A DNA stretch of 64,000 nucleotides from Bdellovibrionales bacterium. Its GTDB lineage: Bacteria; Bdellovibrionota; Bdellovibrionia; Bdellovibrionales; JAUICD01. Position numbers and translations under genes: made by a program. Below the pieces are notes generated by a model, which saw only the letters and a list, made by a program, of their open reading frames with translations, made no database searches and was not told where the DNA came from. Below, in pieces: positions 11,654-43,372 of this stretch (position 1 is its first letter; every line of letters starts with the position of its first letter). Where the stretch lies: contig CBDANC010000013.1 of the NCBI GenBank assembly GCA_965197425.1, forward strand, positions 1 through 64,000, in the 5' to 3' direction.

Positions 11654-11728
11654 ACCGGTAAGTACCCCACTGGTAGTGGGTACCCCACCCGTGGTGGATA
11701 CTCCACTCGTAGTGGATACTCCACTAGT
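11654..11728. repeat. 18-bp micro-palindrome array, 4 units
   Basis: accggtaagtaccccact / ggtagtgggtaccccacc / cgtggtggatactccact / cgtagtggatactccact. Confidence 0.92.
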
Positions 11729-11944
11729 ATCTGATTTTATGGAATTTGTTTTTGTCATAATTTTAAATTAACCCATCATAACCCTTAGCTTCCGAAACCG
11801 TCCAAACCGGGGTACTATAGCATATAGCTAATGAAAACTAAAACACTCGTATATATCATATAAAAGCTATATGTCTTATGGTTTTTTTAGAGGCGTGGGA
11901 GGTACAAAAAAGTTAAGTAAAACCAAGCTATTATTAGTTGAATG

Positions 11945-13345
11945 TCAAGGCCCATCACAAAAACCCGTTGACCCACAAGAATTGGTACAGCCTGGGCATA
12001 CCAAAGGACCTAAGTTAAGACAGTCAGCACTAGTGTTACAAGCTGGTATCTGACAGGCAGGGTCGTCAGGTGTGTGCAAATAGCATACTAAAGGGTTACC
12101 GTTGTTGAACATACACTTTGTCCCAACATAGTCATAACAATTTTGTTTAACTGCATCTGATCCAATCAGATCATAATCAGACTCATTGAATAGTCTACTA
12201 CCAAAGTTGCTACATGTTTTTCTGGCACACGTTCCTGCAACCTCACATCTACCGCAGTCAGTGGGTGGAGGGCATTCTGTACTGGTTAATAGGTGCTTTT
12301 CAAAACAAAAGTCCTCGGTCATAACATAGTATTTACCTTGATCCCACCTTGATGGTGGAGCAGGTACTTTTTTTAGACAATGAACACCAATTGTTATCTG
12401 GGGTGAGTAAGGGTTTTCAATTCTTTTATCAAACAAGGAGATATATGATCCCCCAGGTGGATAATCATTACACCCCACTTTTACTACATTTGGATTTGCG
12501 TTAATTACTAATCCAAGCTCTTCCATATCCAACAAAACTGTCTGTACATAGTACAACCCATCACCAGGACATGGCTGACTTCTAGGAAGTGTAGGTGTTG
12601 TTGGCCTTTTTGCAGTTGGAGTACCTGCTACTAGTTCTAAAGTGTTGCACACGACTATATCAATACACTGGGTGTTCTCATCTTCACATCTTCTACATAC
12701 TTGAGAACCATCTTTTCCACCGCAATATGGTGAATAGCTATTAATAACTCCTATTGAAACAACTGTGTTTGGGCTAGAAGGAGGATGTGTGGTTGTAGTG
12801 GTGGTGGTAATAGGCGTGCCTGGAAGTGGAATGGTCATTAGAGTTGAAGGCAAATCTGATCTATAGTACTGAGCGCAGTATTTGACCAAATCATACTCAA
12901 CACAACCAATATCAGCCCCACTAATAAACAAGAGCCTTAGATCATCAGCCTCAACATATCCTGTCTTTAAACCATTTTTTGTTACATACAACCTAGTATC
13001 TCCTAGGGCAAGAGTAGTAAGAGTATTTCCAGGTGGAATATATTCTATTGCTTCCTGCATATTGTATGCAAGCAGATCCATTACATCCATCATTGCATGA
13101 TTTCTTTTCAAGTCAGCTGTACTAGTATTTTTTCTATTGACTGCGTATAAAACAGTTGCACCTATCGTTGAAAGTGCTGCCAAACTCAAGACCGATACAG
13201 CCAAAATAGCAGCAAATCCATTACAAGGTCTTCCGAACGAAGCAAAAACAAGTAGGCTTCGTAGGCTTCGCCTACTTTTTTTGCTGAATGGTTGCCCAAC
13301 TCTGGACACTGATGCCGACAGTTTTTCTCGTTTATTTAAAAGCAA
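11945..13345 (-). CDS. Prepilin-like (G-F cleavage site, no Glu+5) Cys-rich surface protein
   Basis: GAGG RBS before TTG; NGFAAILAVSVLSLAALSTIG hydrophobic helix; Thr/Pro linker; Cys-rich C-terminal half; same architecture as 14332..15612. Confidence 0.65.
   Translation of the reverse strand: MLLNKREKLSASVSRVGQPFSKKSRRSLRSLLVFASFGRPCNGFAAILAVSVLSLAALSTIGATVLYAVNRKNTSTADLKRNHAMMDVMDLLAYNMQEAIEYIPPGNTLTTLALGDTRLYVTKNGLKTGYVEADDLRLLFISGADIGCVEYDLVKYCAQYYRSDLPSTLMTIPLPGTPITTTTTTTHPPSSPNTVVSIGVINSYSPYCGGKDGSQVCRRCEDENTQCIDIVVCNTLELVAGTPTAKRPTTPTLPRSQPCPGDGLYYVQTVLLDMEELGLVINANPNVVKVGCNDYPPGGSYISLFDKRIENPYSPQITIGVHCLKKVPAPPSRWDQGKYYVMTEDFCFEKHLLTSTECPPPTDCGRCEVAGTCARKTCSNFGSRLFNESDYDLIGSDAVKQNCYDYVGTKCMFNNGNPLVCYLHTPDDPACQIPACNTSADCLNLGPLVCPGCTNSCGSTGFCDGP
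13225..13321 (+). repeat. Modular hairpin element copy lying in frame inside the 11945..13345 leader
   Basis: AAGGTCTTCCGAACGAAGCAAAAA...TTTTTTTGCTGAATGGTTGCCCAACTCTGGACACTGATGCC. Confidence 0.88.
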
Positions 13346-13605
13346 AAAACCACCTCGATATTTCTAAAACAAATACCACTAGAATTCTAATACAAAAACA
13401 AACAGCAGTAAAAGACAAAGCTTGCAGACATGGCCATAAAACAACTCCACCACACAAATGCATCTATTTAATACATTACTTTATAAAACAAATATAACTA
13501 TCTAAAAAGATGTATCTAATATGACAAACTCTAACAAAACCAAAGGAGGTTTGTTTGGCAAATTAATGGGATGAACTATAATATGTACTATGCTAGCTTT
13601 TTGTC

Positions 13606-14073
13606 ATGAAACAGTATTGGTTAATGAAAACAGAGCCTACTAACTATTCTATAGATGATCTAAAAAAAGAAAAAGAGTGCATGTGGGATGGTGTCAGAAA
13701 TTATCAGGCTAGAAATTTTATGATGAAGGATATGAGAGTAGGTGATGAAGTGCTGTTTTATCATTCCAGTGCTATTCCACCTGGGATCGTGGGGCTTGCT
13801 ACGGTGTCAAAAGAGGCCGTTGTTGATGACACACAATTTGACAAAAAAAGTAAGTATTATGACAACAAAGCCACACCAGCAAAACCAATCTGGTATTGTG
13901 TATATGTCAAATTTAAAAAAAAATTAAAAATACCTATTACACTGTCACATATTAAACAGCACAAAGAATTACGCAAAATGATGGTAGCAAAGAGAGGCTC
14001 AAGGCTATCCATACAGCCTGTAACTAAAGATCAATATAACACCATACTTAACATAATAAAAATTAACCACTAA
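13606..14073 (+). CDS. EVE domain-containing protein
   Basis: YWLMKTEP, WDGVRNYQARNFM, GDEVLFYHS, SRLSIQPV. Confidence 0.95.
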   Translation: MKQYWLMKTEPTNYSIDDLKKEKECMWDGVRNYQARNFMMKDMRVGDEVLFYHSSAIPPGIVGLATVSKEAVVDDTQFDKKSKYYDNKATPAKPIWYCVYVKFKKKLKIPITLSHIKQHKELRKMMVAKRGSRLSIQPVTKDQYNTILNIIKINH

Positions 14074-14331
14074 CACTGAGAGGCCACTGACAACAAACTG
14101 ACTGGTTGATTTTTAATAAGTGGTCCTACGTTCCGGCACAGTCGCTTAAAATCCTAACTTCTCAAGACTTTGTTTACTTTTTGTCATCTAACCCCATCGC
14201 TAAGCATGTATAGGACCCTAAAGATATCGGTATTTAGTCTGGCAATTCCTACGGTGCATCACCTTACTTTTAGTTTTTTATTTTTGTTGCTATACTTGTT
14301 TGTTGTTATACTTGGGCTATAAGGAAAAACC

Positions 14332-15612
14332 GTGATGTCGAAGCACTTACTGTCTAATCAAAGTGGCTTTTTTGCAATGTTATTGGTGGCTGTTACTTCA
14401 TTTGCCTTATGGAGTACAATGAGCACTATGCATACATATTCTACAAACAAATCTGATACTCTAGCTAAAATAAAAGAAACCGTGGATATGAATGCTGTTA
14501 TGTCTGATTTTGCCATTGAAGCACAAGCTGCTTTTTATAGACACTATATAGCAAATAATGGCGATTTGTCTGGACCTGATTGCCCCGATTCTAATAAAAA
14601 AAGCTGTACACTGGGTAATCAAGATATGCTTTGTCTTAATAAAACGGACTGTAGTACATGCTTGGAAGTTGTTTATGGAAAAGATTCGTTTGGAAATGAG
14701 GTTTCTGAGGATTATTGTGCTACTTTTTCCGATTTTAGTAGTGTCGATGCTTTCGGAAACTGTTCCAACGATAAGGTATTATGTGTAACAGTTGCTATAG
14801 ATGCTAATGACAAAGAGAATCCTCCTGCTACTGCCGATCTTGCGGAGTGTAAGTCATGCTTTGTTCAACCGTTAAAAATATATTTGGATATACCTGATAC
14901 CACATGTACTACTCCAACTTGCATAGCAGATTCTACTACCTGTGAAACATGCCCCAACGGCCTATGTGGCGCCCAAGAGGCATGCCCACCAGGAACAACA
15001 TGTGATGGTGCTGGTATTTGTACCCCCCCTACTTCATGTACCGATGGAAGTTGTGCTGTTGATAGTGATTGCAATAAATGTGGAGCAACCTGTAACAATG
15101 GTTGTTGCAACGGAGGACAAGCATGTACAGGGCATTATACGATATGCAGTGCTATAAGAACATGCGAGAGACTTCAGATAGGCTGCGACAGAGATTCATG
15201 CTGTGATCGAACAAGTGGTGGTAGTTTCCCATGCCCAAATAAACTCCAGGATTCAAGTTCAGGATTGTGTACATTAAAGTATCCTTGCATAGACAGAACA
15301 TTGGGCAACAAGTGTTACAAATGTAACCCAGTACTCAATGAAGCTTCATGTGACGAGTCGCCCACACCAATTACATGTCCTCTAGGACAGACCTGCAACC
15401 CAGGCACAGGACTTTGTGAAGGGCAATGTAGGGGCTTTACGTGTACTGATGATCAAAGCTGCGGCTACGATGATTCCAATACCTGCGGAAGCAGATGTGA
15501 AAGAGTTAGCCCTTATAGCACATGTATGAAATGTTCTCGTGGCGAACAATGTAACAGTAATCAGGTTTGCAAGTGGGGTGCGTGCCAAGACCCCAACAAC
15601 ATTCAACCCTAG
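14332..15612 (+). CDS. Prepilin-like Cys-rich surface protein
   Basis: SNQSG|FFAMLLVAVTSFALW class III-like leader; C-terminal region densely packed with CxxG/C-x-C modules. Confidence 0.7.
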   Translation: MMSKHLLSNQSGFFAMLLVAVTSFALWSTMSTMHTYSTNKSDTLAKIKETVDMNAVMSDFAIEAQAAFYRHYIANNGDLSGPDCPDSNKKSCTLGNQDMLCLNKTDCSTCLEVVYGKDSFGNEVSEDYCATFSDFSSVDAFGNCSNDKVLCVTVAIDANDKENPPATADLAECKSCFVQPLKIYLDIPDTTCTTPTCIADSTTCETCPNGLCGAQEACPPGTTCDGAGICTPPTSCTDGSCAVDSDCNKCGATCNNGCCNGGQACTGHYTICSAIRTCERLQIGCDRDSCCDRTSGGSFPCPNKLQDSSSGLCTLKYPCIDRTLGNKCYKCNPVLNEASCDESPTPITCPLGQTCNPGTGLCEGQCRGFTCTDDQSCGYDDSNTCGSRCERVSPYSTCMKCSRGEQCNSNQVCKWGACQDPNNIQP

Positions 15613-15725
15613 CGTTTTTTGTCATAAAAATGTTTAATCTTTCTTGCTAATACATTCATTATATCGTTGATTGATATAGAAAAAATGTTAGCGTAAAAAC
15701 AGTATAAAAAGGAGAGTACAAAAAA

Positions 15726-16478
15726 GTGAAAAGTGTGCTTGTTACCGGTGCTACCTCTGGTTTTGGTAAAGCAATTGCCGAACAGTTTGCCAAAAAAGGC
15801 TACAGCGTAATTATAACCGGTAGAAGAAAAGAAAGATTAGCCAAAATAGAGAAATCTCTATCTAACACTTATGGCGTTAGCGTAACCTCTCTTTGTTTTG
15901 ATATTTCTAATTTGTCTGAGTGTAAACAATATCTAAACAAGATTAAGTCCTTGGATATTTTAGTTAACAACGCAGGATTAGCTCTAGGCACTGATACAGT
16001 TGATAGAGCTAATATAGAAGATTGGGAAAAAGTTATTGATACAAATATCAAAGGTGTTTTATACACCACAAGACTTTTACTACCTGCTTTGAAAAAATCT
16101 AAAGGCCACATTGTGAACATTGGCTCCACCGCAGGAAGATGGTCTTATCCTGGTGGAGGTGTTTACTGTGCCTCTAAATTTGCCATTAGAGCATTTTCAG
16201 AAGTCCTAAGATGGGACCTTGATAATTCTAAAATTAGGGTTAGCAATGTATCACCCGGTAGAGCTGAAACAGAATTTAGTGTTGTAAGATTTAAAGGAGA
16301 TGTTTCCAAGGCAAAAAAGGTCTATGAAAATTCAACCCCCCTTAGCTCAGAAGATGTGGCTGCTGCTGTTATTTGGTGCGTCGATAGACCAGCTCATGTA
16401 AATATACAAGAATTGGTTATAGTGCCTACTGATCAACCTGGTGTTCCGGTACCTCCAAAGGAGAGAACAAATGAGTGA
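15726..16478 (+). CDS. SDR family NAD(P)-dependent oxidoreductase (YdfG-like)
   Basis: [29 protein letters not shown]. Confidence 0.92.
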
Positions 16479-17829
16479 ATATAGAATAGAAAAAGACACG
16501 ATGGGTGAAGTAAAAGTTCCAAAGGATAAACTCTGGGGAGCCCAAACTGAACGTTCGAAGGAAAATTTTAAAATCAGTAATGATAAATTTCCCAGAGAAT
16601 TTATACGGGCTTTTGGAATTGTTAAAAAAGCCTGTGCCTTTAGTAACTTTAAAGTCGGTCTTCTGGATAAAGACAAATACGAAGCCATCACCACCATTTC
16701 AGAAGAAATTATTTCTGGAGGGCTAGATGAACACTTTCCCTTAGTAATTTGGCAAACCGGTAGTGGCACTCAAATGAATATGAATTTAAATGAAGTAATT
16801 TCTAATAAAGCAAAAAGTGGATACTCCACCCATATAAATTTACACCCAAATGATGATGTAAATTTAGGCCAAAGCTCCAACGACACTTTCCCCACCGCTA
16901 TGCATATTGCTACAGGTGAGCAATTAGAAAAACTCTCAAACTCACTTAACTTGATATCCAGCAGTTTATCTAAAAAAATAGAGGAGTTTGATGGAATTAT
17001 TAAAATTGGCAGAACCCATTTTATGGATGCTACCCCTATCACATTATCTCAAGAGTTTTCTGGCTACCTCACTCAAATTGAACAGTCAATTAAGCGAGTG
17101 AATGATGTAAAACCTTTTATTTATGAACTGCCATTAGGTGGCACAGCAGTTGGAACTGGAATTAACACAGACAAAAATTTTTCAAAACATGCTGTTAGCT
17201 TTATATCAAAATACACGGGCTTAAAGTTTACAGAAGCAAAAAATAAGTTTGAAGGTATTGCTGCACACGATGCAATGGTTCAGGTTAGCGGAGTACTAAA
17301 GGTTATAGCATGCTCTGTTATGAAAATTGCAAACGATATTAGAATGCTCTCAAGCGGCCCCAGGTGTGGAATCGGTGAGCTAATTTTACCTTCAAATGAA
17401 CCAGGTAGCTCTATTATGCCAGGAAAAATAAACCCAACTCAGTGTGAAGCACTCACTATGGTTTGTGCCCAAGTAATGGGTAATGATACGGCAGTTGGTA
17501 TTGGCGGTTCAAATGGTCACTTTGAGCTTAATGCCTTCAAACCTATGATAGTGTTTAATGTATTAAATAGTATTAGATTGCTTTCAGATGCGTTGAGAAA
17601 TTTTAACGATAAATGTCTAATAGGTATTACGCCTAATGAAAAGAGAATAAAAGAACATTTAAATAATTCACTGATGTTGGTTACTGCACTAAACCCTCAT
17701 ATTGGATATGAAAAAGCGGCTATAATTGCCAAAAAAGCATATGAAAATGGCACAACTTTAAAAGAAGAAGCAGAAAAACTTGGAATTAAAAATTTTGATA
17801 AACTAATAGATCCTAAAAACATGGTTTAG
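16471..17829 (+). CDS. fumC: Fumarate hydratase class II
   Basis: [44 protein letters not shown]. Confidence 0.97.
16816..16830. repeat. Micro-palindrome unit inside fumC (encodes SGYST)
   Basis: AGTGGATACTCCACC in the variable loop just before HPNDDVN. Confidence 0.75.
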
Positions 17830-19530: not shown

Positions 19531-19566
19531 ACTAGTGGAGTATCCACTACGAGTGGAGTATCCACA
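19531..19566. repeat. 18-bp micro-palindrome array, 2 units, upstream of topA
   Basis: actagtggagtatccact / acgagtggagtatccaca. Confidence 0.9.
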
Positions 19567-19590: not shown

Positions 19591-22101
19591 ATGTCTAAGA
19601 AATTATTGATTGTAGAATCCCCTACTAAGGCTAAGACCATAAAAAAGTTTTTAGATTCTAAGTATGAGATTACCTCTTGTGTGGGGCACATAAGGGATCT
19701 CCCTCAAAGTGCTAAGGATATTCCGGAGAAATACAAAAAAAAGCCATGGGCCAACCTTGGGGTAAATACCGACAATAAGTTTGAGCCAATTTACTGCATA
19801 CCAAAAGACAAAGATAAAGTTATCAAACAAATTAAGTCCAAGCTTAAGGAAGCAGATGAGCTCTATCTTGCTACTGATGAAGATAGAGAAGGTGAAAGTA
19901 TATCTTGGCATTTAGTCCAAGTTTTAAAACCTAAGATAAAAGTAAAGAGAATGATTTTTCACGAAATAACCAAGAGTGCTATCAAGGAGGCTTTAGTTAA
20001 TACAAGGGATATTGATGACAACCTGGTAAAAGCTCAAGAAGCTCGCAGGATCTTAGATAGACTTGTGGGTTATACCATTTCACCTCTTTTATGGAAAAAA
20101 CTTGCCTATGGGCTTTCTGCAGGTAGAGTCCAATCGGTTGCAGTTAAGATACTTACAGCTAGAGAGATGGAGCGGATTAACTTTGTCCCTGCAAAATATG
20201 GTAGTGGTACAGCAACCTTTGTTGTTAAAAACAAAAAATACCAGGCTAAATTAAAATCTGTACCTGGTAAAAATGTAGCTGTGGGTACAGACTTTTCACC
20301 TACTACGGGAAAACTAAACAATAAAAAAGTAGTAGTGTTGGACAAAAAAATCTTTTCTAAAATTGAAAGTTCGAAGAATAAACCTTGGGAAGTATCCAAA
20401 GTAAATGAAAAACAGATAACAAAAAAACCGCCCCCTCCATTTATCACCTCCACTCTACAACAGGTTGCAAGTCGTAGATTTTCTTGGAGTGCTTCTAAAG
20501 TCATGAAGGTGGCTCAAAGTTTATATGAACAAGGGTTTATTACTTACATGAGAACTGACAGCACTTCTATATCAAAGGATGCCATTAAAAAAGCAAGGGG
20601 CATCATAGAAAAATTCGGGAAAGAATACTTGCCCTCCTCCCCTAATGTTTATAAACAAAAATCCAAATCTGCTCAAGAGGCACATGAAGCAATAAGACCT
20701 GCAGGTGATTTTATTCACCCCGATAAAATTACAAAAAACCTTCCTGCAAAATCAAATGGTGAACCAAAACTTTATGAACTAATTTGGAAAAGAACTTTAG
20801 CAAGTCAAATGACAAACTCTATCCAAAAACAAGTGAGCTTGGAGATTAAACCAAAAGGCACTGATTATACTTTTGTATTATCTGGGACAACAATAGAATT
20901 TGATGGGTTTCTAAAGCTCTATAATGATGAAAATTACGAAACTACTGTTTTACCTAAACTCAAAGTAGGTGAAAATTTAAAATGTGCTGATTTGGAGTAT
21001 AAGGAACATGAAACAAAACCACCTTTTAGGTACTCCGAGGCCATGTTGATTCAAACTATGGAAAAAGAAGGCATTGGAAGACCTTCTACCTATGCACCCA
21101 CAATATCAAATATTATTCAGCGTGGATATGTAACCAAAGATAAGACATCATTGATACCAACATTTAAAGCCATGATGGTCTCTAAGCTTCTTACAAAATA
21201 TTTTCCAGAATATGTTGATCTTAGTTTTACATCAAAAATGGAAGAGGATTTAGATAGAATAGCAGCAGGAAAATTAAATCATGTAGATTATTTAGATAGT
21301 ATATATTCAGGTAAATCAGGGCTTAAGGATAAGGTTTTGAAAAAAGAGAAGCTCATAGACCCATCAGAATCTAGAACTTTTTTAATAGAAAAACTTAAAA
21401 AATATGAATTTAAAATAGGACGTTTTGGAACTTATGCCTGCACTAAGCAGGGTAAGGAAGAAGTAAAAATTAATTTGCCAGATGATCTTGCACCATCTGC
21501 TGTTGATGAAAAACTTTTGTTAGAATTTTTTAAAGGCAAAGAAAACAATAAAATAGGTGTAGATAAAGAAACTGGATTAACTATATATGCTTTAAGCGGA
21601 AAATATGGCCCTTATTTACAGCTGGGTGAAAATGACAAAAAACCAAAACGTATTAGCATCCCAGAAGAATTAGACCCGTCTTCCATTACCCTAAAACAAG
21701 CTACATTCCTTTTAAGCTTACCAAGCAAACTTGGTGTTTTGAAAAAAAATGTGGATACTCCATCCGTAGAGGTCATGCTTGGAATAAGTAGATTTGGAGT
21801 TTATGTAGCTTGCGATGGAGAATATAGATCTGTTCCAAAGAATGTAAGTATATTTGATGTTGATTTAAAATTAGCCAGTGATCTGCTTAAGCAAGAGAAG
21901 CGATCTTGGAAGAAAAAAAGTAATGCTATAGATTTAGGACCATATCCTAAAACAAAATCAAATATTTTTGTACATAATGGTAAATATGGTCCTTATATTA
22001 AGTTTAAAAACAAAAATTACTCGATTAAAAAAGATTTAAAGCCAGAAGAGGTTCAACTATCAGATGCCCTTGAGATAATAGATTCAAGTAAGCGTAAGTG
22101 A
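19591..22101 (+). CDS. topA: DNA topoisomerase I with C-terminal Toprim_C repeats
   Basis: LIVESPTKAKTI, ATDEDREGE, SAGRVQS, ITYMRTDS, GIGRPST, GRFG/GKYGPY repeats. Confidence 0.97.
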   Translation: MSKKLLIVESPTKAKTIKKFLDSKYEITSCVGHIRDLPQSAKDIPEKYKKKPWANLGVNTDNKFEPIYCIPKDKDKVIKQIKSKLKEADELYLATDEDREGESISWHLVQVLKPKIKVKRMIFHEITKSAIKEALVNTRDIDDNLVKAQEARRILDRLVGYTISPLLWKKLAYGLSAGRVQSVAVKILTAREMERINFVPAKYGSGTATFVVKNKKYQAKLKSVPGKNVAVGTDFSPTTGKLNNKKVVVLDKKIFSKIESSKNKPWEVSKVNEKQITKKPPPPFITSTLQQVASRRFSWSASKVMKVAQSLYEQGFITYMRTDSTSISKDAIKKARGIIEKFGKEYLPSSPNVYKQKSKSAQEAHEAIRPAGDFIHPDKITKNLPAKSNGEPKLYELIWKRTLASQMTNSIQKQVSLEIKPKGTDYTFVLSGTTIEFDGFLKLYNDENYETTVLPKLKVGENLKCADLEYKEHETKPPFRYSEAMLIQTMEKEGIGRPSTYAPTISNIIQRGYVTKDKTSLIPTFKAMMVSKLLTKYFPEYVDLSFTSKMEEDLDRIAAGKLNHVDYLDSIYSGKSGLKDKVLKKEKLIDPSESRTFLIEKLKKYEFKIGRFGTYACTKQGKEEVKINLPDDLAPSAVDEKLLLEFFKGKENNKIGVDKETGLTIYALSGKYGPYLQLGENDKKPKRISIPEELDPSSITLKQATFLLSLPSKLGVLKKNVDTPSVEVMLGISRFGVYVACDGEYRSVPKNVSIFDVDLKLASDLLKQEKRSWKKKSNAIDLGPYPKTKSNIFVHNGKYGPYIKFKNKNYSIKKDLKPEEVQLSDALEIIDSSKRK
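21751..21765. repeat. Micro-palindrome unit inside topA (encodes VDTPS)
   Basis: GTGGATACTCCATCC in a C-terminal repeat loop. Confidence 0.6.
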
Positions 22102-27963: not shown

Positions 27964-28040
27964 GCGTCAGTAGCTCAATTGGATAGAGCATCAGACTTCG
28001 GATCTGAGGGTTAGGGGTTCGACTCCTCTCTGACGCACCA
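27964..28040 (+). tRNA. tRNA-Arg (anticodon UCG)
   Basis: GCGTCAG/CTGACGC acceptor stem, TCAGA-CTTCGGA-TCTGA anticodon arm, TTCGA loop, encoded CCA. Confidence 0.96.
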
Positions 28041-29308: not shown

Positions 29309-29666
29309 TGGTGGAGGCGGTGGGTTTCGAACCCACTTTACTTCAAGTCTTCTTCTAAAAGGTACTACATGTTTAGTCTATGATTAATACCAAAGGAAGT
29401 AAGTTCACAGACAGACTCTTTCCCATGGCTAGCCTTAAAGCTTCGGTTAATTGATCAAGGCTAAAAATCTCAACTAACCTACAATTGCTAAGTGACAACC
29501 AAACTGATAGACACAATCAAACTATCAAAGGTTGGGCAGTCTTATTAACTAAGCTGCCAAAGCGTAATCGTTGCCAATTACTATTTGTCGGGTCTTAATA
29601 ACGGGAAACCCAACCCAACATGCACCTTAAAGTTTCATCACCCAAAGTCGAGGCCAATTCGCCCCC
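29309..29666 (-). ncRNA. ssrA: tmRNA
   Basis: 5' GGGGGCG...CTCGAC, 3' GGTTCGAAACCCACCGCCTCCACCA with G3-U70 pair; internal tag ORF GGC AAC GAT TAC GCT TTG GCA GCT TAG (GNDYALAA*). Confidence 0.96.
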
Positions 29667-34215: not shown

Positions 34216-34269
34216 ACGTCTGGTGTTACCAGCACGGCCGATGTTATCGGTACGGCTGGTGCTACCAGT
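34216..34269. repeat. 18-bp micro-palindrome array, 3 units with compensatory stem changes
   Basis: acg-tctggt-gtt-accagc / acg-gccgat-gtt-atcggt / acg-gctggt-gct-accagt. Confidence 0.88.
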
Positions 34270-34288: not shown

Positions 34289-37252
34289 TTACTTAGGAGC
34301 GCTTTGGAGGTCATGGGAGCAAGTGCAAAAGAGATTTTTGTCGCCGTAAGGATTATCAACTCTTCCTACATATGGCCAAAATTTGTTTTGAATTGTGTGA
34401 TTTAGAGGAAAACAAGCTTTTTTCTTTGAGTACGGGTGCTTCCACTCTGAGGCTAAGTGCAAGGCAGTGTGGGGAGCATTTTTTAACAAGTTGTCTTTTT
34501 TGTCCGACTTGCCATTTTCAATATCTAAAAACTCTTTTTTTATTTCAATTAAACAATCACAAAATCTATCTAATTCATCTAAAGATTCACTTTCGGTTGG
34601 TTCTATCATCAATGTACCTCTGACGGGCCAAGACATAGTAGGTGCGTGAAATCCATAGTCAATTAATCTCTTTGCCACATCTTCTACATCCACAGAAGCT
34701 CTTTTTGGCCAATCCCTTAAATCAATGATACATTCATGTGCTACAAAACCATTTTTGCCCGTATACAATATTGGATAGTGAGGAGATAATTTTTTTGCAA
34801 TATAATTTGCATTTAAAATAGCGGCTTGCGATGCCTTTTTTAGTCCAGAAAAACCCATCATCAAAATATACATCCAAGATATAGTTAGGATAGATGCACT
34901 TCCATATGGAGCTTGTGATATTAAACCAATACTTTGTGTGGAATCACTAAAGAGATTGTCTTGTGGAAGATACTCTTTTAAATGCTCTTTTACCAATACA
35001 GGTCCAACTCCAGGCCCTCCACCTCCATGTGGAATACAAAAAGTTTTATGCAAATTCAAATGACATACATCAACTCCATATTCACCAGGGTAACATAAAC
35101 CAAGTTGAGCATTCATGTTTGCACCATCTAAGTAAACTTGTCCTCCATGCTTGTGTACAACATCACATATTTCCATAATATCTTCTTCAAAAACTCCATG
35201 TGTAGAAGGGTATGTGATCATCAAGCTAGATAGATTTTTCTCATGCTCTTTTGCCTTTAGCTTTAGATGCGATAGATCTATATTTCCATTTTTATCACAA
35301 TTAATTTCTACAACTTTTAAACCTGCCATAACAGCACTTGCTGGATTTGTTCCATGTGCCGAAGTTGGTATAAGACATACATCTCTATTTTCACCTTTTA
35401 TTTTATGATATTGTCTTATAACCAATAACCCTGCATACTCACCTTGAGATCCTGCATTAGGCTGTAAGCTTGCAGCATCGAATCTCGTCAATTTACAAAG
35501 CCATTCCTCTAGCTCTGAGATAAGCTCTAAATAGCCCACAACCTGGTTTTCCGGCGCAAAGGGATGTATGTTAGAAAACTCACGCCATGATAAAGGTAAC
35601 ATTTCGGTAGTAGCATTTAGTTTCATTGTACAAGAACCTAATGGAATCATTGAGTGAGTTAGAGATAAATCTCTCATGCAAAGTTGATTTATATAGCGTA
35701 ACATTTTAGTCTCTGAATGATATGTGTTGAAAACTTCATGGGTCATGAAGTCAGTTGTTCTTGCTACAGCTTTATCAATTACCAGTGGAGTATCTACCAC
35801 AATGTTGTCATTATTCACGTTAGATTTTTTAAGATCGAATATTTTAAGGATGTTGTATATATCTTTATCTTTTGTGGTTTCATTGAGTGATATACCAAGT
35901 GTTTCCTTATTGATGTATCTAAAGTTAATTTTGTTATCGTGTGCTTTGTTAATAATTTTTAAAGCATCTTTTGTTTTAATAGTTAGAGTGTCAAAGTGAG
36001 TTTTTGTGACAACCTCCAGTGGAGTATTCACTACTGGTGGAGTATCCACTACCAGTGGAGTATCCACATCGAATGATGATTTTAGACTGTTTTTAAGTAG
36101 TGTAGTAAGTTTATGTATTCTAAGAGCTATATTTTTTAAACCTTTAGGTCCATGATAAACTGCGTACATACTTGCAATTATTGCTAGTAGAGCCTGTGCT
36201 GTACAAATATTGCTTGTGGCTTTAGATCTTCTAATGTGTTGTTCTCTGGTTTGAATACTTAATCTAAGTGCTGGATTACTGTGTACATCTTTTGAAACAC
36301 CTACAATTCTACCTGGTAAAAGTCTCTTATATTTATCTTTAGTTGCGATGTAAGCTGCATGAGGTCCGCCGAATCCCATAGGAACACCAAATCTCTGAGT
36401 AGTTCCAACCACTACATCAGCACCCAGCTCTCCAGGAGGTTTGAATAATGTAAGTGCAAGTAAGTCAGCAATAAAAATTTTTCTTATACTGTGATCATTG
36501 GCTTTAGTTATTATATCTTTGTAAGTGTTCACATTGCCATAGGTGTCAGGGTATTGAATTACAATTGCAAAGTACTTGGATAGATCTAAACTATCTGATT
36601 CAAAATTTTTAATATCCATTTTAATGTTTAAAGGAGACAATCTTGTCTGAAGCACTTTTAGTGTTTGAGGGTGAACAGCATCTGATACAAGCACACTTTT
36701 ACCAGGATCATATGCAAGTGGAGTATCCACTACCGGTGGAGTATCCACTACCAGTGGAGTATCCACCATCATGCTGACAGCTTCTGCGGTAGCTGTGGAT
36801 TCATCCAACATGGATGCATTTGCTATATCCATACTGGTAAGCTCACAGATCATAGTTTGAAAGTTTAAGAGTGCTTCCAATCTTCCTTGTGAAATTTCAG
36901 ATTGATAAGGAGTATATTGCGTATACCAACCAGGGCTTTCTAAAATATTTCTCAAAATTACTTTTGGTGTAATAGTTGGATAATAACCCATCCCTATGTA
37001 ATCTTCATAAACAAAATTTTTTTGTGCTAAACATTTTGCGCGCTCTAAAGCATCATGTTCACTGGTTGGTTTTAGATCTAGAGTTGTATTACTTCTAATA
37101 TTATTTGGAATTGTTTTAGAAGTTAGCTCATCCAAACTGGTAACACCAGCCGTACTGGTAACACCAGCGGTATTTGACAGAGATAAAAATTCAAGCATTT
37201 TAGCTATTTCTTTATCGCCAGGGCCTATGTGTCTATTAACAAACTCTTCCAT
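34289..37252 (-). CDS. gcvP: Glycine dehydrogenase (decarboxylating) P protein with four in-frame repeat insertions
   Basis: FVNRHIGP, YTQYTPYQSEISQGRLE, QTREQHIRR, PLGSCTMKLN, HLNLHKTFCIPHGGGGPG; start taken at ATG of MEEF. Confidence 0.97.
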   Translation of the reverse strand: MEEFVNRHIGPGDKEIAKMLEFLSLSNTAGVTSTAGVTSLDELTSKTIPNNIRSNTTLDLKPTSEHDALERAKCLAQKNFVYEDYIGMGYYPTITPKVILRNILESPGWYTQYTPYQSEISQGRLEALLNFQTMICELTSMDIANASMLDESTATAEAVSMMVDTPLVVDTPPVVDTPLAYDPGKSVLVSDAVHPQTLKVLQTRLSPLNIKMDIKNFESDSLDLSKYFAIVIQYPDTYGNVNTYKDIITKANDHSIRKIFIADLLALTLFKPPGELGADVVVGTTQRFGVPMGFGGPHAAYIATKDKYKRLLPGRIVGVSKDVHSNPALRLSIQTREQHIRRSKATSNICTAQALLAIIASMYAVYHGPKGLKNIALRIHKLTTLLKNSLKSSFDVDTPLVVDTPPVVNTPLEVVTKTHFDTLTIKTKDALKIINKAHDNKINFRYINKETLGISLNETTKDKDIYNILKIFDLKKSNVNNDNIVVDTPLVIDKAVARTTDFMTHEVFNTYHSETKMLRYINQLCMRDLSLTHSMIPLGSCTMKLNATTEMLPLSWREFSNIHPFAPENQVVGYLELISELEEWLCKLTRFDAASLQPNAGSQGEYAGLLVIRQYHKIKGENRDVCLIPTSAHGTNPASAVMAGLKVVEINCDKNGNIDLSHLKLKAKEHEKNLSSLMITYPSTHGVFEEDIMEICDVVHKHGGQVYLDGANMNAQLGLCYPGEYGVDVCHLNLHKTFCIPHGGGGPGVGPVLVKEHLKEYLPQDNLFSDSTQSIGLISQAPYGSASILTISWMYILMMGFSGLKKASQAAILNANYIAKKLSPHYPILYTGKNGFVAHECIIDLRDWPKRASVDVEDVAKRLIDYGFHAPTMSWPVRGTLMIEPTESESLDELDRFCDCLIEIKKEFLDIENGKSDKKDNLLKNAPHTALHLASEWKHPYSKKKACFPLNHTIQNKFWPYVGRVDNPYGDKNLFCTCSHDLQSAPK
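35781..35798. repeat. Micro-palindrome unit in gcvP (VVDTPLV)
   Basis: accagtggagtatctacc. Confidence 0.8.
36018..36068. repeat. Micro-palindrome array in gcvP, 3 units (VDTPLVVDTPPVVNTPL)
   Basis: agtggagtattcact-act-ggtggagtatccact-acc-agtggagtatccaca. Confidence 0.92.
36717..36767. repeat. Micro-palindrome array in gcvP, 3 units (VDTPLVVDTPPVVDTPL)
   Basis: agtggagtatccact-acc-ggtggagtatccact-acc-agtggagtatccacc. Confidence 0.92.
37136..37171. repeat. Micro-palindrome array in gcvP, 2 units (TAGVTSTAGVTS)
   Basis: actggtaacaccagccgt / actggtaacaccagcggt. Confidence 0.9.
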
Positions 37253-37256
37253 TAGC

Positions 37257-37270
37257 AGTGGAGTATCCAC
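37257..37270. repeat. Micro-palindrome unit immediately upstream of the gcvP ATG
   Basis: agtggagtatccac. Confidence 0.8.
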
Positions 37271-37313
37271 AAATTTTTTAGAAGCTACAACACAAAAATA
37301 AGCTAAGCAAGAC

Positions 37314-38580: not shown

Positions 38581-38586
38581 CTTTCC

Positions 38587-39543
38587 TCAAAGGTTTTTTT
38601 TATACAACGCATGAGTAGTATCAATATACCTAATTGTACCAGTTTTTGATCTCATCACTATGGAAAATGTTTTAGCCTTTTTATTGGGTAAAAACTTCAC
38701 TCCGTCTAATAATGAGCCATCTGTTACACCTGTCGCTGCAAAGATAACATCATTTCCCGCTAATTCATCTATTGTGTAAACTTTATCAAAATTTGTTATG
38801 CCCATCGATCTGGCTCTATCCTTTTCTTCATCTTTAAATTTTAGTTTGCCCTGCATATCTCCATTTAAACATTTCAGTGCAGCAGCAGCTAATACTCCTT
38901 CTGGAGCTCCTCCGATACCCAGTAACATATCTATCCCAGAATTTGGATATGATGTTGAAATGGCAGCAGAAACATCTCCATCACCTATCATATGTATTCT
39001 CGCTCCAACACTTCTTACTTCACTAATTAAATCCAAGTGTCTATCTCTATCCAGTATTATAGTTGTTAGCTCTTTGGGGCTCTTACCTAAAGCTTTTGCC
39101 ACTTTGTTGATATTATGGGTTGGAGATTTTGTTATATCTATTGCACCCTTAGCTTTGGGACCTACAGCAATTTTGTCCATATACACATCAGGTGCATGAA
39201 GAAAACTACCCTCACCTCCAGCAGCTATCACACTTAAAGCACCATAACCACCATTTGCACAAATAGAAGTACCTTCTAAAGGATCCAGAGCAATGTCTAT
39301 TTTGGGGCAATTTTTTTCTGATTTACCTACGTTCTCTCCGATATAAAGCATTGGGGCTTTATCTCGTTCCCCTTCCCCTATAACTACAGTTCCATCTATA
39401 TCTAGTTTGGAGAAAGCTTCCCTCATGGCATCCACAGCAGCCCTATCAGCAGCCACAGGATCACCTTTGCCCATCCACTTTGAGCTAGCAACCGCAGCTG
39501 CCTCTGTAATCCTAACAAACTCCAAAGCCAGATTTCTGTACAT
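38587..39543 (-). CDS. glpX: Fructose-1,6-bisphosphatase class II
   Basis: VVIGEGERDKAPML, DPLEGT, GDGDV, GGAPEGV, ATGVTDG. Confidence 0.96.
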   Translation of the reverse strand: MYRNLALEFVRITEAAAVASSKWMGKGDPVAADRAAVDAMREAFSKLDIDGTVVIGEGERDKAPMLYIGENVGKSEKNCPKIDIALDPLEGTSICANGGYGALSVIAAGGEGSFLHAPDVYMDKIAVGPKAKGAIDITKSPTHNINKVAKALGKSPKELTTIILDRDRHLDLISEVRSVGARIHMIGDGDVSAAISTSYPNSGIDMLLGIGGAPEGVLAAAALKCLNGDMQGKLKFKDEEKDRARSMGITNFDKVYTIDELAGNDVIFAATGVTDGSLLDGVKFLPNKKAKTFSIVMRSKTGTIRYIDTTHALYKKNL

Positions 39544-39661
39544 AGACCCCCTACAACTAACATACTTTGATAAGCATAATGATCTCTTTCTAAGAAGCTA
39601 TTAATATTATGCGTCAAAAAATAGTTTGTATAAAGTCTGATTAATTATAGTGTATTTATAT

Positions 39662-40219
39662 ATGGACTTTACTTTACCAAACAAAGTTACATTATCCAGG
39701 CTCATTTTAATAACACCTATATTGGCGTTTTTATATGTAGGCTCTTTATGGTCTGAGCTAACTGCTGCTGTCATATTTATAATAGCTGCTATTACTGATT
39801 ATTATGATGGATTTTTTGCTAGAAAATTAAATTTAGGTACTAATTTTGGTAAAATTTTTGATCATTCAGCAGATAAAGGGCTTGTTACTAGTGTTTTGAT
39901 AATGTTGCTTTACCTAAAAAGAATTGATCCATTTTTACTAACGATACTAGTTGTAAGAGACATCTTGGTTAATGGAATAAGAATTAGTGCTGCAAGTGAT
40001 CTTAATGTTATAGGAGCTGGCAAGTCTGGAAAGTGGAAGACTGCTTTGCAGATGAGTGCAATACCTTTGTTATTTGTAAACCCTGACAGTTTAAATTTTA
40101 AAATTTATGATTGGCTTCACCTGGCGGCTTACTATGTGTTGTGGCTCAGCGTAGTGTTCAGTATTGTGTCAGGCTTGGAATACTACAAGTTGTGGTCAAA
40201 GAACAAAACCAACCATTAG
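39662..40219 (+). CDS. pgsA: CDP-diacylglycerol--glycerol-3-phosphate 3-phosphatidyltransferase
   Basis: PNKVTLSR, TDYYDGFFARK...FGKIFDHSADK, GKWKT; followed by tRNA-Gly. Confidence 0.92.
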   Translation: MDFTLPNKVTLSRLILITPILAFLYVGSLWSELTAAVIFIIAAITDYYDGFFARKLNLGTNFGKIFDHSADKGLVTSVLIMLLYLKRIDPFLLTILVVRDILVNGIRISAASDLNVIGAGKSGKWKTALQMSAIPLLFVNPDSLNFKIYDWLHLAAYYVLWLSVVFSIVSGLEYYKLWSKNKTNH

Positions 40220-40275
40220 TTTATGGTTTCTTGACTTACTTTGAGGGTGGTATTAGCTTTTCCAGATCATCATTT

Positions 40276-40351
40276 GCGCAAGTAGCTCAGCTGATAGAGC
40301 GTCGCCTTGCCAAGGCGAAGGTCGCGGGTTTGAACCCCGTCTTGCGCTCCA
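40276..40351 (+). tRNA. tRNA-Gly (anticodon GCC)
   Basis: GCGCAAG/CTTGCGC acceptor stem, TCGCC-TTGCCAA-GGCGA anticodon arm, encoded CCA; non-canonical A19 and U56. Confidence 0.93.
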
Positions 40352-40363
40352 GTTTTTACCCAA

Positions 40364-40543
40364 TTCGGAAGATCTTTAGAGGCCAGATTTGGCATCGTGT
40401 TCCAGAGCTGGGCAACCACTCAGCAAAAAAACCGACCGCAGGGAGATTATTTCAATTGGAAAATATAAAGATTTATCCCGTGAGCCAATTGAACCAAAGT
40501 AGGCATAGCCTCCTTATTTTTTGCTTCGTTCGGAAGACCTTTA
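40364..40543 (-). repeat. Modular hairpin element copy
   Basis: Minus strand TAAAGGTCTTCCGAACGAAGCAAAAAATAAG...GAGTGGTTGCCCAGCTCTGGAACACGATGCC; core closely matches 29155-29296 and 60219-60415. Confidence 0.9.
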
Positions 40544-40593
40544 AATTAAAATTTTTGTTGAACAAACAAGCTACCTAAAATAAAACTTGTAGT

Positions 40594-41073
40594 ATGAACT
40601 TTCAAACAACTATCAATACAACAATGGGAACTCTTGTTCTAATAGCTTCTGATAAAGGTGTAAAAGAACTACACTTTGAAAACAGAGCTTATGAAAAAAA
40701 TATTGCCATCAAAAAATCTACACAAAACCACATAACAAAAGAAGCCACAAAACAACTGAAAGAATATTTTAATGGTAAAAGAAAATCATTCAATATACCT
40801 CTGGATTTAGAAGGCACATCATTTCAAAAACAAGTATGGCAAGCTTTAAGACAAATTAAATTTGGTGCCACAATAAGCTACAAAGAACAAGCCAAAATGA
40901 TCAACAAACCAAAAGCATATAGAGCTGTGGGAACAGCTAATGGGAAAAATCCAATACCAATTATTATTCCTTGTCACAGAGTTGTATCCTCAAATGGACT
41001 AGGTGGTTTTTCAGGAGGAATGCATAATAAAGTATTTTTGCTAGACCACGAAACCAAGCACTTAAATCATTAA
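40594..41073 (+). CDS. ogt: Methylated-DNA--protein-cysteine methyltransferase
   Basis: GTSFQKQVW, RAVGTANGKNPIPIIIPCHRV. Confidence 0.95.
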   Translation: MNFQTTINTTMGTLVLIASDKGVKELHFENRAYEKNIAIKKSTQNHITKEATKQLKEYFNGKRKSFNIPLDLEGTSFQKQVWQALRQIKFGATISYKEQAKMINKPKAYRAVGTANGKNPIPIIIPCHRVVSSNGLGGFSGGMHNKVFLLDHETKHLNH

Positions 41074-41096
41074 AAAATTTTTAGTTCGAAAAAGTT

Positions 41097-41771
41097 TTAC
41101 TCACCCTTGGAGTCAATGAACATGTTGGGCTTTATTGTGTCAACCCAAGCTTTATAACTTTCGTAGATATCTTGATTTTCAAAAGTTTTTACAGGGCCTA
41201 CATGGATAGTAAGTGTTTTGCCATATTTTGCAAACCAATTTGCTTTAGGCCAAGCTTCAAATGCGCCATCTATAAAGAAAAATAAAACTGGAGTATCGGT
41301 TTTTTTTGAAATAATATCAGCACCTTTTTTAAACATATGTATCTTACCATCTAAGGATCTTGTTCCTTCAGGAAATACCAAAAGCCAAACTTTATCTAAC
41401 TTTTTTAAGAGAGACATACATAGCATAAGAGTGTCTTGACCTTTTTCATTTCTATCAACAGGAATAGCCCTCATACAATGTTTCGAAAAAAAACTAATAA
41501 AAGGGTTAGAAAAAAAGTAATCCTTAGCAGCAGTTACATAAAGATCAAAACATCTTTTGGTAGAAACTATCGTTGTAATGGCAGGGGCATCTAGATGACT
41601 TGAGTGATTTGATATAAACAAGAGTTTGGGGTATTTGTCTAACACCTCCTCTATGTTTCCTACAACTTTCAACTTTATATAATACTTAAAAAATATTTTT
41701 TTTAACAGCTTTACAAATAAAACTCTTACCGTCACACCCACTAATTTAAAACTACTACTAAAATGTTCCAT
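41097..41771 (-). CDS. Lysophospholipid acyltransferase (PlsC family)
   Basis: NHSSHLD, AAKDYFF, FPEGTRS. Confidence 0.9.
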   Translation of the reverse strand: MEHFSSSFKLVGVTVRVLFVKLLKKIFFKYYIKLKVVGNIEEVLDKYPKLLFISNHSSHLDAPAITTIVSTKRCFDLYVTAAKDYFFSNPFISFFSKHCMRAIPVDRNEKGQDTLMLCMSLLKKLDKVWLLVFPEGTRSLDGKIHMFKKGADIISKKTDTPVLFFFIDGAFEAWPKANWFAKYGKTLTIHVGPVKTFENQDIYESYKAWVDTIKPNMFIDSKGE

Positions 41772-41827
41772 TGATTACCTATAAACAAGATACAATAATA
41801 AGCAATGCATACTAGTGCCTCAGGATA

Positions 41828-43372
41828 TTAGAAGTTAGAAATTGCAAGTTGAACGGCTCTATAAACATCAAGTATACCATGACCATAAGTGTTGTTTGGA
41901 ATTTTATTTTTATTATTACCACAAACAACTCTCGCAAATTTTGGAGTAGCTGTGTCCATTAAAATTTGAGCGGTTTTATCTACTTGACCAATTAAACTTT
42001 TATTAGCAGACCAAACAAGTGCAATTGCACCAGCAACATGAGGTGTTGCCATCGAAGTACCATACCAATCATCACCAAATAGACCATTTGACAAAGAAGA
42101 CCTAATGTTCATACCAGGAGCAACTATATGAGGTGCAACTTTATTAGTGTAAGATGAAGGACCTCTAGAAGACAAATGCCAAATTTCATCTGTCACATAA
42201 AATATAGCACCAACAGAAAAGGAGTGATCTGTATGCCATGCAGGAGAACTTTCAATACTGGAACAACCAGGGCCGGAGTTACCAGCAGAAACAACCACAA
42301 AAATTCCAGCAGTTTTCAAAATTTTTAACACATCTAATAATTCATCTTGAAAGCAACCCTCAGTGCCAGGGCAACTCCACGAGTTATTTATAATATGTGG
42401 AGCTTTTGAAGGATCACCATCTGTCATATGATCACCTCCTACTTTGTAAGGAGCAAAGAAAAATTCAAAACACCCCAAATAAGTAGACAGGTTACCTACA
42501 CCCATATCCTTATTTCTACACGCAATCCAAGAAGCCCCAGGTGCAACTCCAGTAAAATTTGTTCCATCGCTTCCTACAGCAATTCCCAACACATGTGTAC
42601 CGTGACTGAGATCATCACAAGGTATAGAAGAGCTGTAGCCACATGGATTGTTCTCAGCATAACTTATTAACGAATGCTCAACAGCATCATGCCAATTAAA
42701 ATCATGCTGGGGTTTATCACCTGTTGATCCTCTATATTGATCTACCAAAGCTCCGTGAGACCAATCAGCTCCAGTATCCTGACTTGCAACCACAATTCCT
42801 TCACCATCAGTGAACTCTTCCCAAACTTTATCAGCACCTATATAAGATATATTAGGTTCTACAGAAACTTGTGGTGGATACTCCACTGGTGGCAGTTGCT
42901 GTTTACCACCCAAGCTAGAATTATTGTTTATACCACTTAAACTGGTAACACCAGTAGTATGGGTAACTTCAGTGACATTTGAAATTAAAAATATTCTGTC
43001 TATTTCATTAAATTTAGATAGTTTTTTAACAACTTCTTCCCCAGCAGATTGTACGAATATAGCATTAATCAAGTAATGTCTCTTATACAACACATCAACA
43101 GAGTTTAAAAAATCCACTACATCACGTTGACTATTTAAAGCTAGGTTAGTTAAAAAATTATATAAAACTTTTCCCCTTTCAGAAACAGGGTAAGAAGCTA
43201 TGTGATCTAAAAATACATCATTAAGCTGATCTTTAAACGTAACCATGACAGACACATTACCATTTAAAAGCTTGTCAAAAACTTTAGGTTCTACCCTAGT
43301 GTTTTCTATTACTCTTAAACAAAAGATAAGTGTCGATATGAAAACTAAAGAAAATAAAAAATTTTTTATCAT
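41828..43372 (-). CDS. S8 (subtilisin-like) serine peptidase
   Basis: QDTG, HGTHVLG, SAGNSG, GTSMATPHVAG. Confidence 0.93.
   Translation of the reverse strand: MIKNFLFSLVFISTLIFCLRVIENTRVEPKVFDKLLNGNVSVMVTFKDQLNDVFLDHIASYPVSERGKVLYNFLTNLALNSQRDVVDFLNSVDVLYKRHYLINAIFVQSAGEEVVKKLSKFNEIDRIFLISNVTEVTHTTGVTSLSGINNNSSLGGKQQLPPVEYPPQVSVEPNISYIGADKVWEEFTDGEGIVVASQDTGADWSHGALVDQYRGSTGDKPQHDFNWHDAVEHSLISYAENNPCGYSSSIPCDDLSHGTHVLGIAVGSDGTNFTGVAPGASWIACRNKDMGVGNLSTYLGCFEFFFAPYKVGGDHMTDGDPSKAPHIINNSWSCPGTEGCFQDELLDVLKILKTAGIFVVVSAGNSGPGCSSIESSPAWHTDHSFSVGAIFYVTDEIWHLSSRGPSSYTNKVAPHIVAPGMNIRSSLSNGLFGDDWYGTSMATPHVAGAIALVWSANKSLIGQVDKTAQILMDTATPKFARVVCGNNKNKIPNNTYGHGILDVYRAVQLAISNF
42873..42973. repeat. Two micro-palindrome sites in the S8 propeptide linker (PVEYPP; TEVTHTTGVTS)
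   Basis: ggtggatactccact at 42873-42887; actggtaacaccagt at 42941-42955 plus a degenerate unit 18 bp on. Confidence 0.8.

Follow-up and report, generated by a model that had tools for sequence, protein, structure and literature searches.

A stretch of 64,000 nucleotides from a Bdellovibrionales bacterium (NCBI GenBank assembly GCA_965197425.1, contig CBDANC010000013.1, positions 1 to 64,000 of the forward strand; referred to below as the window) carries, between and inside its genes, multiple copies of an 18-nucleotide hairpin unit that is a lineage-specific dispersed repeat. The unit is probably a non-autonomous, very small mobile DNA element, copied with defined ends into new sites; we put the probability of this reading at roughly 0.7. 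A first-pass annotation of the same DNA had proposed a minimal selfish hairpin element. The main predictions of that proposal, on insertions, counts and reads, held, although mobile and selfish are still words of inference.

The genome to which the window belongs (1.60 Mb in 15 contigs, 35% G+C, 99% complete as judged from markers; the window is part of contig C13) was scanned with a unit model, in which the stem was scored as pairs over three iterations at a threshold of at least 14 bits. A genome of the same genus (G001), analysed minus its last 901 bases, served as the sister for comparison. In the orientation used here, the unit has the consensus ACN-R-GTGGA-GTW-TCCAC-Y, with near-invariant A and C in the spacer and G and T in the loop. 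Within the window, AGTGGAGTATCCACT with at most three mismatches gave 19 matches, whereas shuffled sequences (n=100) averaged 1.26 and never reached 19, and the pair-aware scan detected 23 units at 12 loci, the same 12 for which about 24 units had been counted before. The genome-wide count against a Markov background, suggested as a check by the first-pass annotation, gave 154 units at 102 loci, as compared with 8 and 3 matches in two order-4 Markov simulations of the genome. Single units account for 70 loci, doublets for 18, triplets for 8 and quadruplets for 6, the largest arrays being 72 nt in length. About 95 loci have distinct flanks, and the remainder are copies within paralogous genes.

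The repeat is specific to this lineage. Its 13-nt core is present 45 times here, is absent from the sister genome and occurs at most once in each of 29 other relatives. With the unit model, 8 matches were obtained in the sister genome at the same threshold, which corresponds to the chance level, and no period-18 hairpin array was found there. For wider collections a two-unit IUPAC pattern was scanned, because chance matches would swamp single-unit patterns. This pattern had no match in a genome collection (one genome for each of 185,579 species) or in a metagenome contig collection, in both of which the window's own records may be excluded. No Rfam family matches the units, and a literature search found no paper on an 18-bp element in Bdellovibrionales.

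Covariation was observed between the two arms of the hairpin. The stem had been described as 6 bp, and this had to be corrected: the outermost 'pair' follows Watson-Crick rules in only 50 of 144 units of the genome and lacks pairing in 9 of the 21 distinct rows of the window, and its R base does not covary with the last base, indicating that the true stem is 5 bp. Four of the five true pairs covary, with counts of 116/13 for G-C/C-G, 111/24 for T-A/C-G, 127/8 for G-C/C-G and 97/16/12/4 for A-T/T-A/C-G/G-C. Among the 23 units of the window, 92.1% of the cells are paired, against 26-60% in controls with slid partners, and 16 cells are changed on both sides, a number that none of 500 shuffles reached. 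Arrays fold well, with z about -3 to -4.4, the exception being the array at 11657 (z -1.6).

The units of the window, together with the gene that hosts most of them, are located as follows.

11657..11728, minus strand: array of four units, intergenic, 186 nt from the start side of the open reading frame (ORF) 10986-11471 and 216 nt from ORF 11945-13345; two of its units have a compensated GTGGG/CCCAC stem.
16816..16833, minus strand: single unit in fumC (16441-17829, plus strand), reading SGYSTH; exact 18-bp insertion relative to the sister genome.
19531..19566, plus strand: array of two units, 24 nt upstream of the topA ATG (19591).
21750..21767, minus strand: single unit of the variant ATGGA/TCCAC in the C-terminal part of topA (19591-22101, plus strand), reading VDTPS; the joined flanks align to the sister genome with small gaps.
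34216..34269, plus strand: array of three units, 19 nt beyond the gcvP stop, with coaD 90 nt away; its stems are divergent yet compensated (CTGGT/ACCAG, CCGAT/ATCGG).
34289..37270, minus strand: gcvP, host of four internal loci and of one unit at its start.
35781..35798, plus strand: single unit in gcvP, reading VDTPL on the gene strand; missing from 11 orthologues, in a region of variable length.
36015..36068, plus strand: array of three units in gcvP (DVDTPLVVDTPPVVNTPL); exact 54-bp insertion.
36714..36767, plus strand: array of three units in gcvP (VDTPLVVDTPPVVDTPL), in a loop whose length varies between orthologues.
37136..37171, minus strand: array of two units of the CTGGT/ACCAG subfamily in gcvP (TAGVTSTAGVTS); exact 36-bp insertion.
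37254..37271, plus strand: single unit at the extreme 5' end of gcvP; 18-nt gain relative to the sister genome.
42873..42890, minus strand: single unit in a subtilisin-like protease gene (41828-43372, minus strand), reading PVEYP; gap in the orthologue of the sister genome.
42941..42958, minus strand: single unit of the CTGGT/ACCAG subfamily in the same protease gene (41828-43372, minus strand), reading TTGVTS, in a poorly aligned region.

The gene names given before (fumC, topA, gcvP and an S8, or subtilisin-like, protease) were confirmed. Of the four loci that had been called intergenic, those at 11657, 19531 and 34216 are so; the fourth, at 37254, overlaps the start of gcvP, and 'intergenic' is uncertain for it. 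The first in-frame GTG of gcvP (37270) lies inside this unit, and the next ATG (37252) is located 2 nt past it. At the position where the unit holds the first in-frame GTG, the sister gcvP has ATG GAT. Either the start codon of gcvP may have been replaced by the unit, or initiation may have shifted to the ATG 2 nt downstream.

At sites with a good alignment of orthologues, the units were shown to be insertions. In alignments with the sister genome the gaps are exactly 18, 36 or 54 bp, without target duplication, and at 19 loci the joined flanks are colinear with that genome. Against 11 orthologues, GcvP has insertions of 12, 18 and 6 residues and a further one of 18 residues in a loop of variable length, all missing from the 11, which include the 77%-identical protein of the sister genome. 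FumC shows an exact 18-bp gap against the same genome, and its six extra residues are placed in a loop that has a greater length in solved fumarases. The proposal that the units add peptide loops to housekeeping enzymes agrees with these two proteins. Among the loci for which orthologue alignment had been suggested, those of GcvP, FumC and the protease unit at 42873 showed up as insertions; for the topA unit at 21750 and the protease unit at 42941, where the alignment is poor, a clean insertion was not shown. The mapping on a structure is given little weight for GcvP: the AlphaFold2 model of GcvP, made from a 12-sequence alignment, is poor overall (mean pLDDT 60.5; 396 of 987 residues below 50), and its four inserted segments are coil with pLDDT below 50, as is much of the remainder, which gives weak support to a location of the GcvP inserts in loops.

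The test was extended to the whole genome by tblastn against the sister genome, in which a match across the site was obtained for 70 of 86 host ORF-locus pairs. Of these, 40 had an identity of 50% or more, and the share of unit residues standing opposite gaps was 70% or more in 24 of the 40, partial in 7 and below 30% in 9. As a candidate of another kind, a DNA uptake sequence was considered and ruled out, since such sequences accumulate by substitution, with no change in length, and the units are length gains of 18n bp relative to orthologous DNA.

The ends of the unit are fixed to within 1 nt. When the assumed boundary was moved off the A of ACN, the match of the reconstructed empty site to the sister genome became steadily worse, and the optimum was found at 0 or -1 for 14 gap-free loci. 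Across 94 loci, the sequence on the 5' side of ACN carries C at -5 in 63 cases, A at -3 in 52 and a pyrimidine (Y) at -1 in 90, and no sequence signal was detected in the right-hand flank among these 94. The same preference was already present in the 19 empty sites of the sister genome, of which 10 have C at -5 (p=5.5e-4), 13 have A at -3 (p=1.4e-3) and 14 have Y at -1 (p=0.03), indicating that the flank motif is a target preference and not a part of the element. This target, CNANY, resembles the 3' end of the unit itself, CCACY.

Arrays are strictly head-to-tail, with a period of 18 and no spacer. The Hamming distance between units is 2.9 of 18 positions within arrays and 5.3 between arrays, and none of 2000 permutations gave a value as low, indicating that arrays grow locally. 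Compensated stem variants were found at many loci with distinct flanks (GCGGA 22, GTGGT 8, GTGCC 8 and CTGGT 6, among 95 flank contexts). Units with GCGGA are present at 8 of 8 loci between 265 and 300 kb of contig C13 and at none of 20 loci elsewhere on this contig (Fisher 3e-7). The occurrence of subfamilies at independent, clustered loci indicates that variants were copied, mostly to nearby positions.

One subfamily differs in its surroundings. Units with GTGCC/GGCAC are mostly intergenic and have longer flanks in common, for example in three copies 85 nt apart (C15:87420-87607; C12:155253, 159318, 215090 and 215176; C14:71008), and they may belong to another repeat as one of its modules instead of being free 18-nt units.

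A mobile element of this size could behave in the following way. Insertion would be sequence-directed and would take place directly 3' of a CNANY pentanucleotide resembling the CCACY end of the unit. An existing unit would be a good target, so that a new copy would often land behind an old one and give a head-to-tail array, in which replication slippage would then alter the number of units. Compensated stem variants would arise rarely and would then be copied, mostly over short distances. Selection would purge copies in the stop frame and copies at intolerant protein positions, so that those in loops, linkers and termini would remain. If there is an enzyme, it is predicted to act in trans, and a host function would not be needed.

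Of the 102 loci, 77 are intragenic, in ORFs of at least 100 aa. As such ORFs make up 87% of the genome, coding DNA is only mildly avoided. Each intragenic unit adds six amino acids, and 17 of the 77 intragenic loci fall within the first 35 residues. The units occur in both orientations and in all five stop-free frames (by locus, TSGVST 25, VDTPL 23, GGYSTG 13, PVEYP 12 and QWSIH 6), and never in the frame that contains a stop; the earlier observation that several frames are used was in this way extended to every open frame. The spread had been described as 'in frame'. Frames are indeed kept open, but this is automatic for a length of 18 nt. Within genes a unit would be tolerated on account of its length of six codons and the absence of stops from five of six frames.

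Selection on the peptide, with the palindrome incidental, would account for the many copies that read TSGVST or GGYSTG, which resemble flexible linkers, and for the several copies in large surface-type proteins or just past N-termini that look like signal peptides; Ser/Thr/Gly-rich linkers or modification sites would be what is selected. The frame usage contradicts it, since five frames give five unrelated peptides, and about a quarter of the loci are outside ORFs. In addition, the innermost stem pair couples the third base of a Gly codon, a synonymous site, to the first base of a Ser/Thr/Pro/Ala codon, a non-synonymous site, and selection at the peptide level would not yield a covariation that ties the one to the other. 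We consider this explanation very improbable. The claim that the DNA structure and not the peptide is conserved agrees with the use of both orientations and five frames, with the intergenic copies and with stem covariation across synonymous and non-synonymous sites.

Sequencing reads were consulted through Logan contigs. Contigs from the probable source run, one of which spans 41000-44000, contain the units and show 0 differences. Two runs from other studies contain a related strain that is a few percent (about 4%) divergent, and contigs of both carry the 19531 array with a T>G spacer variant of their own at 19533. That the units are an artefact of assembly or sequencing has in its favor the breaks of independent-assembly contigs at arrays, which are expected for repeats near the assembler word length, and the low depth (about 3-4); set against it are the exact agreement of the source-run contigs, the 19531 array with its own variant in two other studies and the reading frames kept open at 77 loci. 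We give an artefact practically no credence. The absence of the units from reads, which had been named as an observation that would speak against the element, was not seen, as independent assemblies of reads carry them.

The contigs of the related strain also supplied the comparison of filled and empty sites between strains that had been called for. In one contig of run X4, exactly 18 nt are missing at 42871, corresponding to the single protease unit, and the empty site is framed by flanks of 160 and 62 nt. In another X4 contig, 18 nt fewer are present at 36037 within the 36015 array, giving two units instead of three. Because the X4 strain and the sister genome are both empty at the protease site, the simplest reading is that the 42873 unit was gained in the present lineage after its split from the X4 strain. 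Recent activity is suggested by such an empty site at about 4% divergence.

A host function at the level of DNA or RNA was also considered, in which the unit would be a protein binding site, a hairpin stabilising or attenuating transcripts, or an uptake-type signal, the genic copies being side effects. The near-invariant GT of the loop and AC of the spacer would suit such a function, as would the position of several copies beside gene starts or ends (19531, 34216, 37254) and the excess of G-T over A-C pairs, 32 to 17 in stem pairs 2-6 on the unit strand. The genome also has a family of multi-HTH proteins that is missing from the sister genome. These proteins of 283-576 aa consist almost solely of repeated HTH_Tnp_1-type modules, without a catalytic domain, and are encoded at the following positions.

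C15:241255-246286: three multi-HTH genes in tandem.
C15:188267-189319: multi-HTH coding region.
C15:344777-347098: multi-HTH coding region.

The family has 12 matches in this genome, none in the sister genome and 5 in one family-level relative that lacks the unit, and its genes show no positional link to the 18-nt units. Against such a function, ORFs contain three quarters of the loci, in both orientations, the units are missing from the sister genome, a close strain is short of one copy, and Rfam has no match. A host function is an improbable explanation on this balance.

Several observations weigh against a mobile element. The search for a mobiliser (HUH/RAYT and others), which had been proposed together with the element, was carried out. 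In the 99%-complete genome it gave no match to PF01797 (RAYT/IS200 Y1), for which the control search was positive in 6 of 14 named genomes, and none to PF07282 (TnpB), PF00078 (reverse transcriptase) or PF04480 (DUF559); no stand-alone GIY-YIG gene was detected either, the sole PF01541 match lying within UvrC (TIGR00194, 512 bits). A Pfam scan covered 138 of the 177 ORFs that have no tblastn match in the sister genome, omitting 35 ORFs shorter than 120 aa and four longer than 1300 aa. No HUH domain was found among these 138 genome-specific ORFs, other transposase families not having been searched genome-wide. The scan did detect one IS4-like and one DDE_Tnp_1 transposase, a T5orf172/DUF4041 protein, six multi-HTH_Tnp_1 proteins and many defence genes. 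None of the scanned genome-specific transposases, multi-HTH proteins or defence genes is flanked by units, and the T5orf172/DUF4041 protein, likewise genome-specific, has no link to them. The lone hairpin is weak, at -3.4 kcal/mol as DNA. Both strain differences come each from one low-depth contig (depth 3 and 4.6). In single-strand transposition of the IS200/IS605 type, orientation is tied to the direction of replication; the units show no orientation bias relative to local GC skew (37:37), the skew being noisy in a draft genome. Lastly, nine well-aligned loci show no gap, including the topA unit at 21750 and the S8 protease unit at 42941. About five of the nine are low-scoring single matches in conserved sequence and probably look like units by chance, five being the number of false positives that the simulations predict. 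The marginal match at C14:210647 (IVDTPLV versus ITYAPIV, no gap) and four similar matches without a gap were set aside as probable chance look-alikes.

The local clustering of subfamilies and the microhomology-like target also fit a copying process without an enzyme. In such a process, a nascent CNANY-like end would mispair with a nearby CCACY, copy one or more units by template switching and return, after which slippage would expand the arrays and correction templated by the hairpin would maintain the complementarity of its arms. Neither a transposase nor a nuclease partner was found, the target resembles the 3' end of the unit, subfamilies are clustered by region, units are more alike within arrays than between them and there is no replication-strand bias of orientation, all as template switching would have it. 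The fixed ends are harder to accommodate, being constant to within 1 nt at 14 loci with no motif on the return side, the right flank. Just 3-4 nt of microhomology are shared, and the sister genome, which has the same size and G+C content, has none of these units. We regard template switching without any dedicated enzyme as unlikely, while giving it more weight than a host function.

A mobile element remains the preferred reading, and a fuller form of it can be offered tentatively. The 18-nt hairpin would be a complete mobile unit with its own insertion rule, copied by machinery other than Y1/RAYT, TnpB, Ssn or DUF559, or by the replisome; it would land behind CNANY, seed arrays and spread mainly nearby. 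If this is true, the unit would be the smallest mobile DNA that has both defined ends and a target rule, and it would steadily supply core enzymes with six-residue loops.

Other repeats and features were noted in the same genome. Larger dispersed palindromic families of tens of bases are built around hairpins such as GGAGGC-NNN-GCCTAC, TCTGGC-NNN-GCCAGA and GTTGGC-NNN-GCCAAC (window positions 13261, 27872 and 40499; contigs C12, C14 and C15), and the sister genome has larger palindromic families of its own, which are different. At C9:6107-7148, an array of 36-nt period (about 16 copies, 61% match) and two shorter arrays contain CCCTAATTAGGG; this 7-kb contig also encodes an IS4-like (DDE_Tnp_1_7) transposase (C9:1031-2389). 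Inside the window ORF 45632-46528, which has no match in the sister genome, a 39-nt tandem repeat of 6.2 copies (92% match) extends over 45845-46086 and a 168-nt repeat of two copies over 46170-46500. Eight tandem copies of a 153-nt repeat lie inside a large gene at C15:155232-156361. The genome-specific defence genes (C13:119022-120925, C13:190900-192123, C15:307570-309068 and others) encode patatin with SMODS (CBASS-like), a DarT-macro fusion, ThsB-TIR, AbiJ-like and HipA proteins and several restriction endonucleases. RNA genes of the window are listed below.

29309-29666, minus strand: tmRNA gene.
27964-28037, plus strand: tRNA gene.
40276-40348, plus strand: tRNA gene.

Very small dispersed palindromes are known, as intragenic REPs (repetitive extragenic palindromes), Rickettsia palindromic elements (RPEs) and small dispersed repeats (SDRs), and their movement is unsolved wherever the RAYT is absent. 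The present unit offers a clean case, with one 18-nt hairpin, about 95 independent sites, a sister genome with empty sites, ends fixed to within 1 nt, a measurable target preference, signs of recent activity and none of the customary partner enzymes. It is a tractable system for asking if such elements need a dedicated enzyme, and it shows the addition of six-residue loops to conserved enzymes such as GcvP and FumC.

Among the known systems, RPEs were reportedly described by Ogata and colleagues in 2000, RPE-1 being said to be of the order of 100-150 bp and to encode tens of residues; SDRs are said to have been described by Elhai and colleagues in 2008 in Genome Res 18:1484. Like RPEs, the present unit is palindromic, lies in frame in housekeeping genes, adds peptide and is without a known mobiliser. 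Unlike RPE-1, it is a single 18-nt hairpin that encodes six residues and forms arrays of up to 72 nt.

The first-pass annotation had not recognised the unit as a described family. This family and its small size are new, but its kind is known from RPEs, SDRs and the intragenic REPs (PMC3733652). REPs tagged with GTAG or CGTC are 20-40 bp in length, with stems of 6-13 bp, loops of 2-3 nt and complementary stem subfamilies (Di Nocera et al. 2013, PMC3733652). According to the same source, GTAG-1 of Thauera has stems of 5 bp, and copies within ORFs, many near N-termini, are found in Opitutus terrae, in R. conorii (RPE-4/RPE-6) and in Thauera, while REPs are mostly extragenic, with HH/TT dimers dominating and HT dimers rare. 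The present unit resembles these REPs in its short stem-loop and small loop, and it shares the compensated subfamilies, the occurrence as singles and clusters, the intra-ORF copies that add residues and the N-terminal sites. On the opposite strand most units begin with GT(A/G)G, as in the REP tag, since the reverse reads NGT-R-GTGGA; of 94 first units, 66 have A and 21 have G as the reverse-strand R. The last G of this tag is, however, the first base of the stem, paired and covarying (C-G in 13 of 144 units), unlike that of REPs. At 18 nt the unit is shorter than the 20-40 bp given for REPs, and its 5-bp stem and 3-nt loop come close to the Thauera case. It further differs in its head-to-tail arrays of period 18, in the intragenic position of 77 of 102 loci and in the lack of a RAYT gene.

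RAYTs use the tag as a guide to select a CT or CA cleavage site (Corneloup et al. 2021, PMC8266576). Set beside that account of REP/RAYT and IS200/IS605, the unit has a hairpin with a short guide-like 5' tetranucleotide, a C-pyrimidine next to the hairpin, and insertion beside a short specific target without target duplication; the 3-nt loop is also that of the 23-nt S. maltophilia REP (PMC8266576). Unlike elements derived from IS200/IS605, it is accompanied by no Y1 or TnpB gene, shows no bias of orientation by GC skew (37:37) and has a stem of only 5 bp. Among known mechanisms, the tag-guided cleavage of RAYTs comes closest in its logic to the use of a short target next to a hairpin. The NTS/SRM repeats, present in hundreds of copies, are tied in other bacteria to Ssn GIY-YIG sequence-specific single-strand nucleases (Chenal et al. 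2025, PMC11893778). The unit resembles them as a short repeat of many copies and differs in that the genome has no stand-alone Ssn GIY-YIG gene, only UvrC.

Cyanobacterial SDRs, as characterised in papers that cite their description, are about 20 nt long, tandem in varying copy number and perhaps mobile, with no enzyme (PMC3116915, PMC5861425, PMC2884548); SDR5 has an insertion preference at HIP1, and SDRs are reported only in Nostocaceae (PMC5861425). The present unit differs from them in its Bdellovibrionales-like host and in its target, which is CNANY and not HIP1. It is like them in its length of about 20 nt, its tandem copies, its presumed mobility, the lack of an enzyme and the preferred site, a likeness drawn from those citing descriptions and not from sequences. 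Judged by these shared features, the cyanobacterial SDRs appear to behave most similarly to the 18-nt unit.

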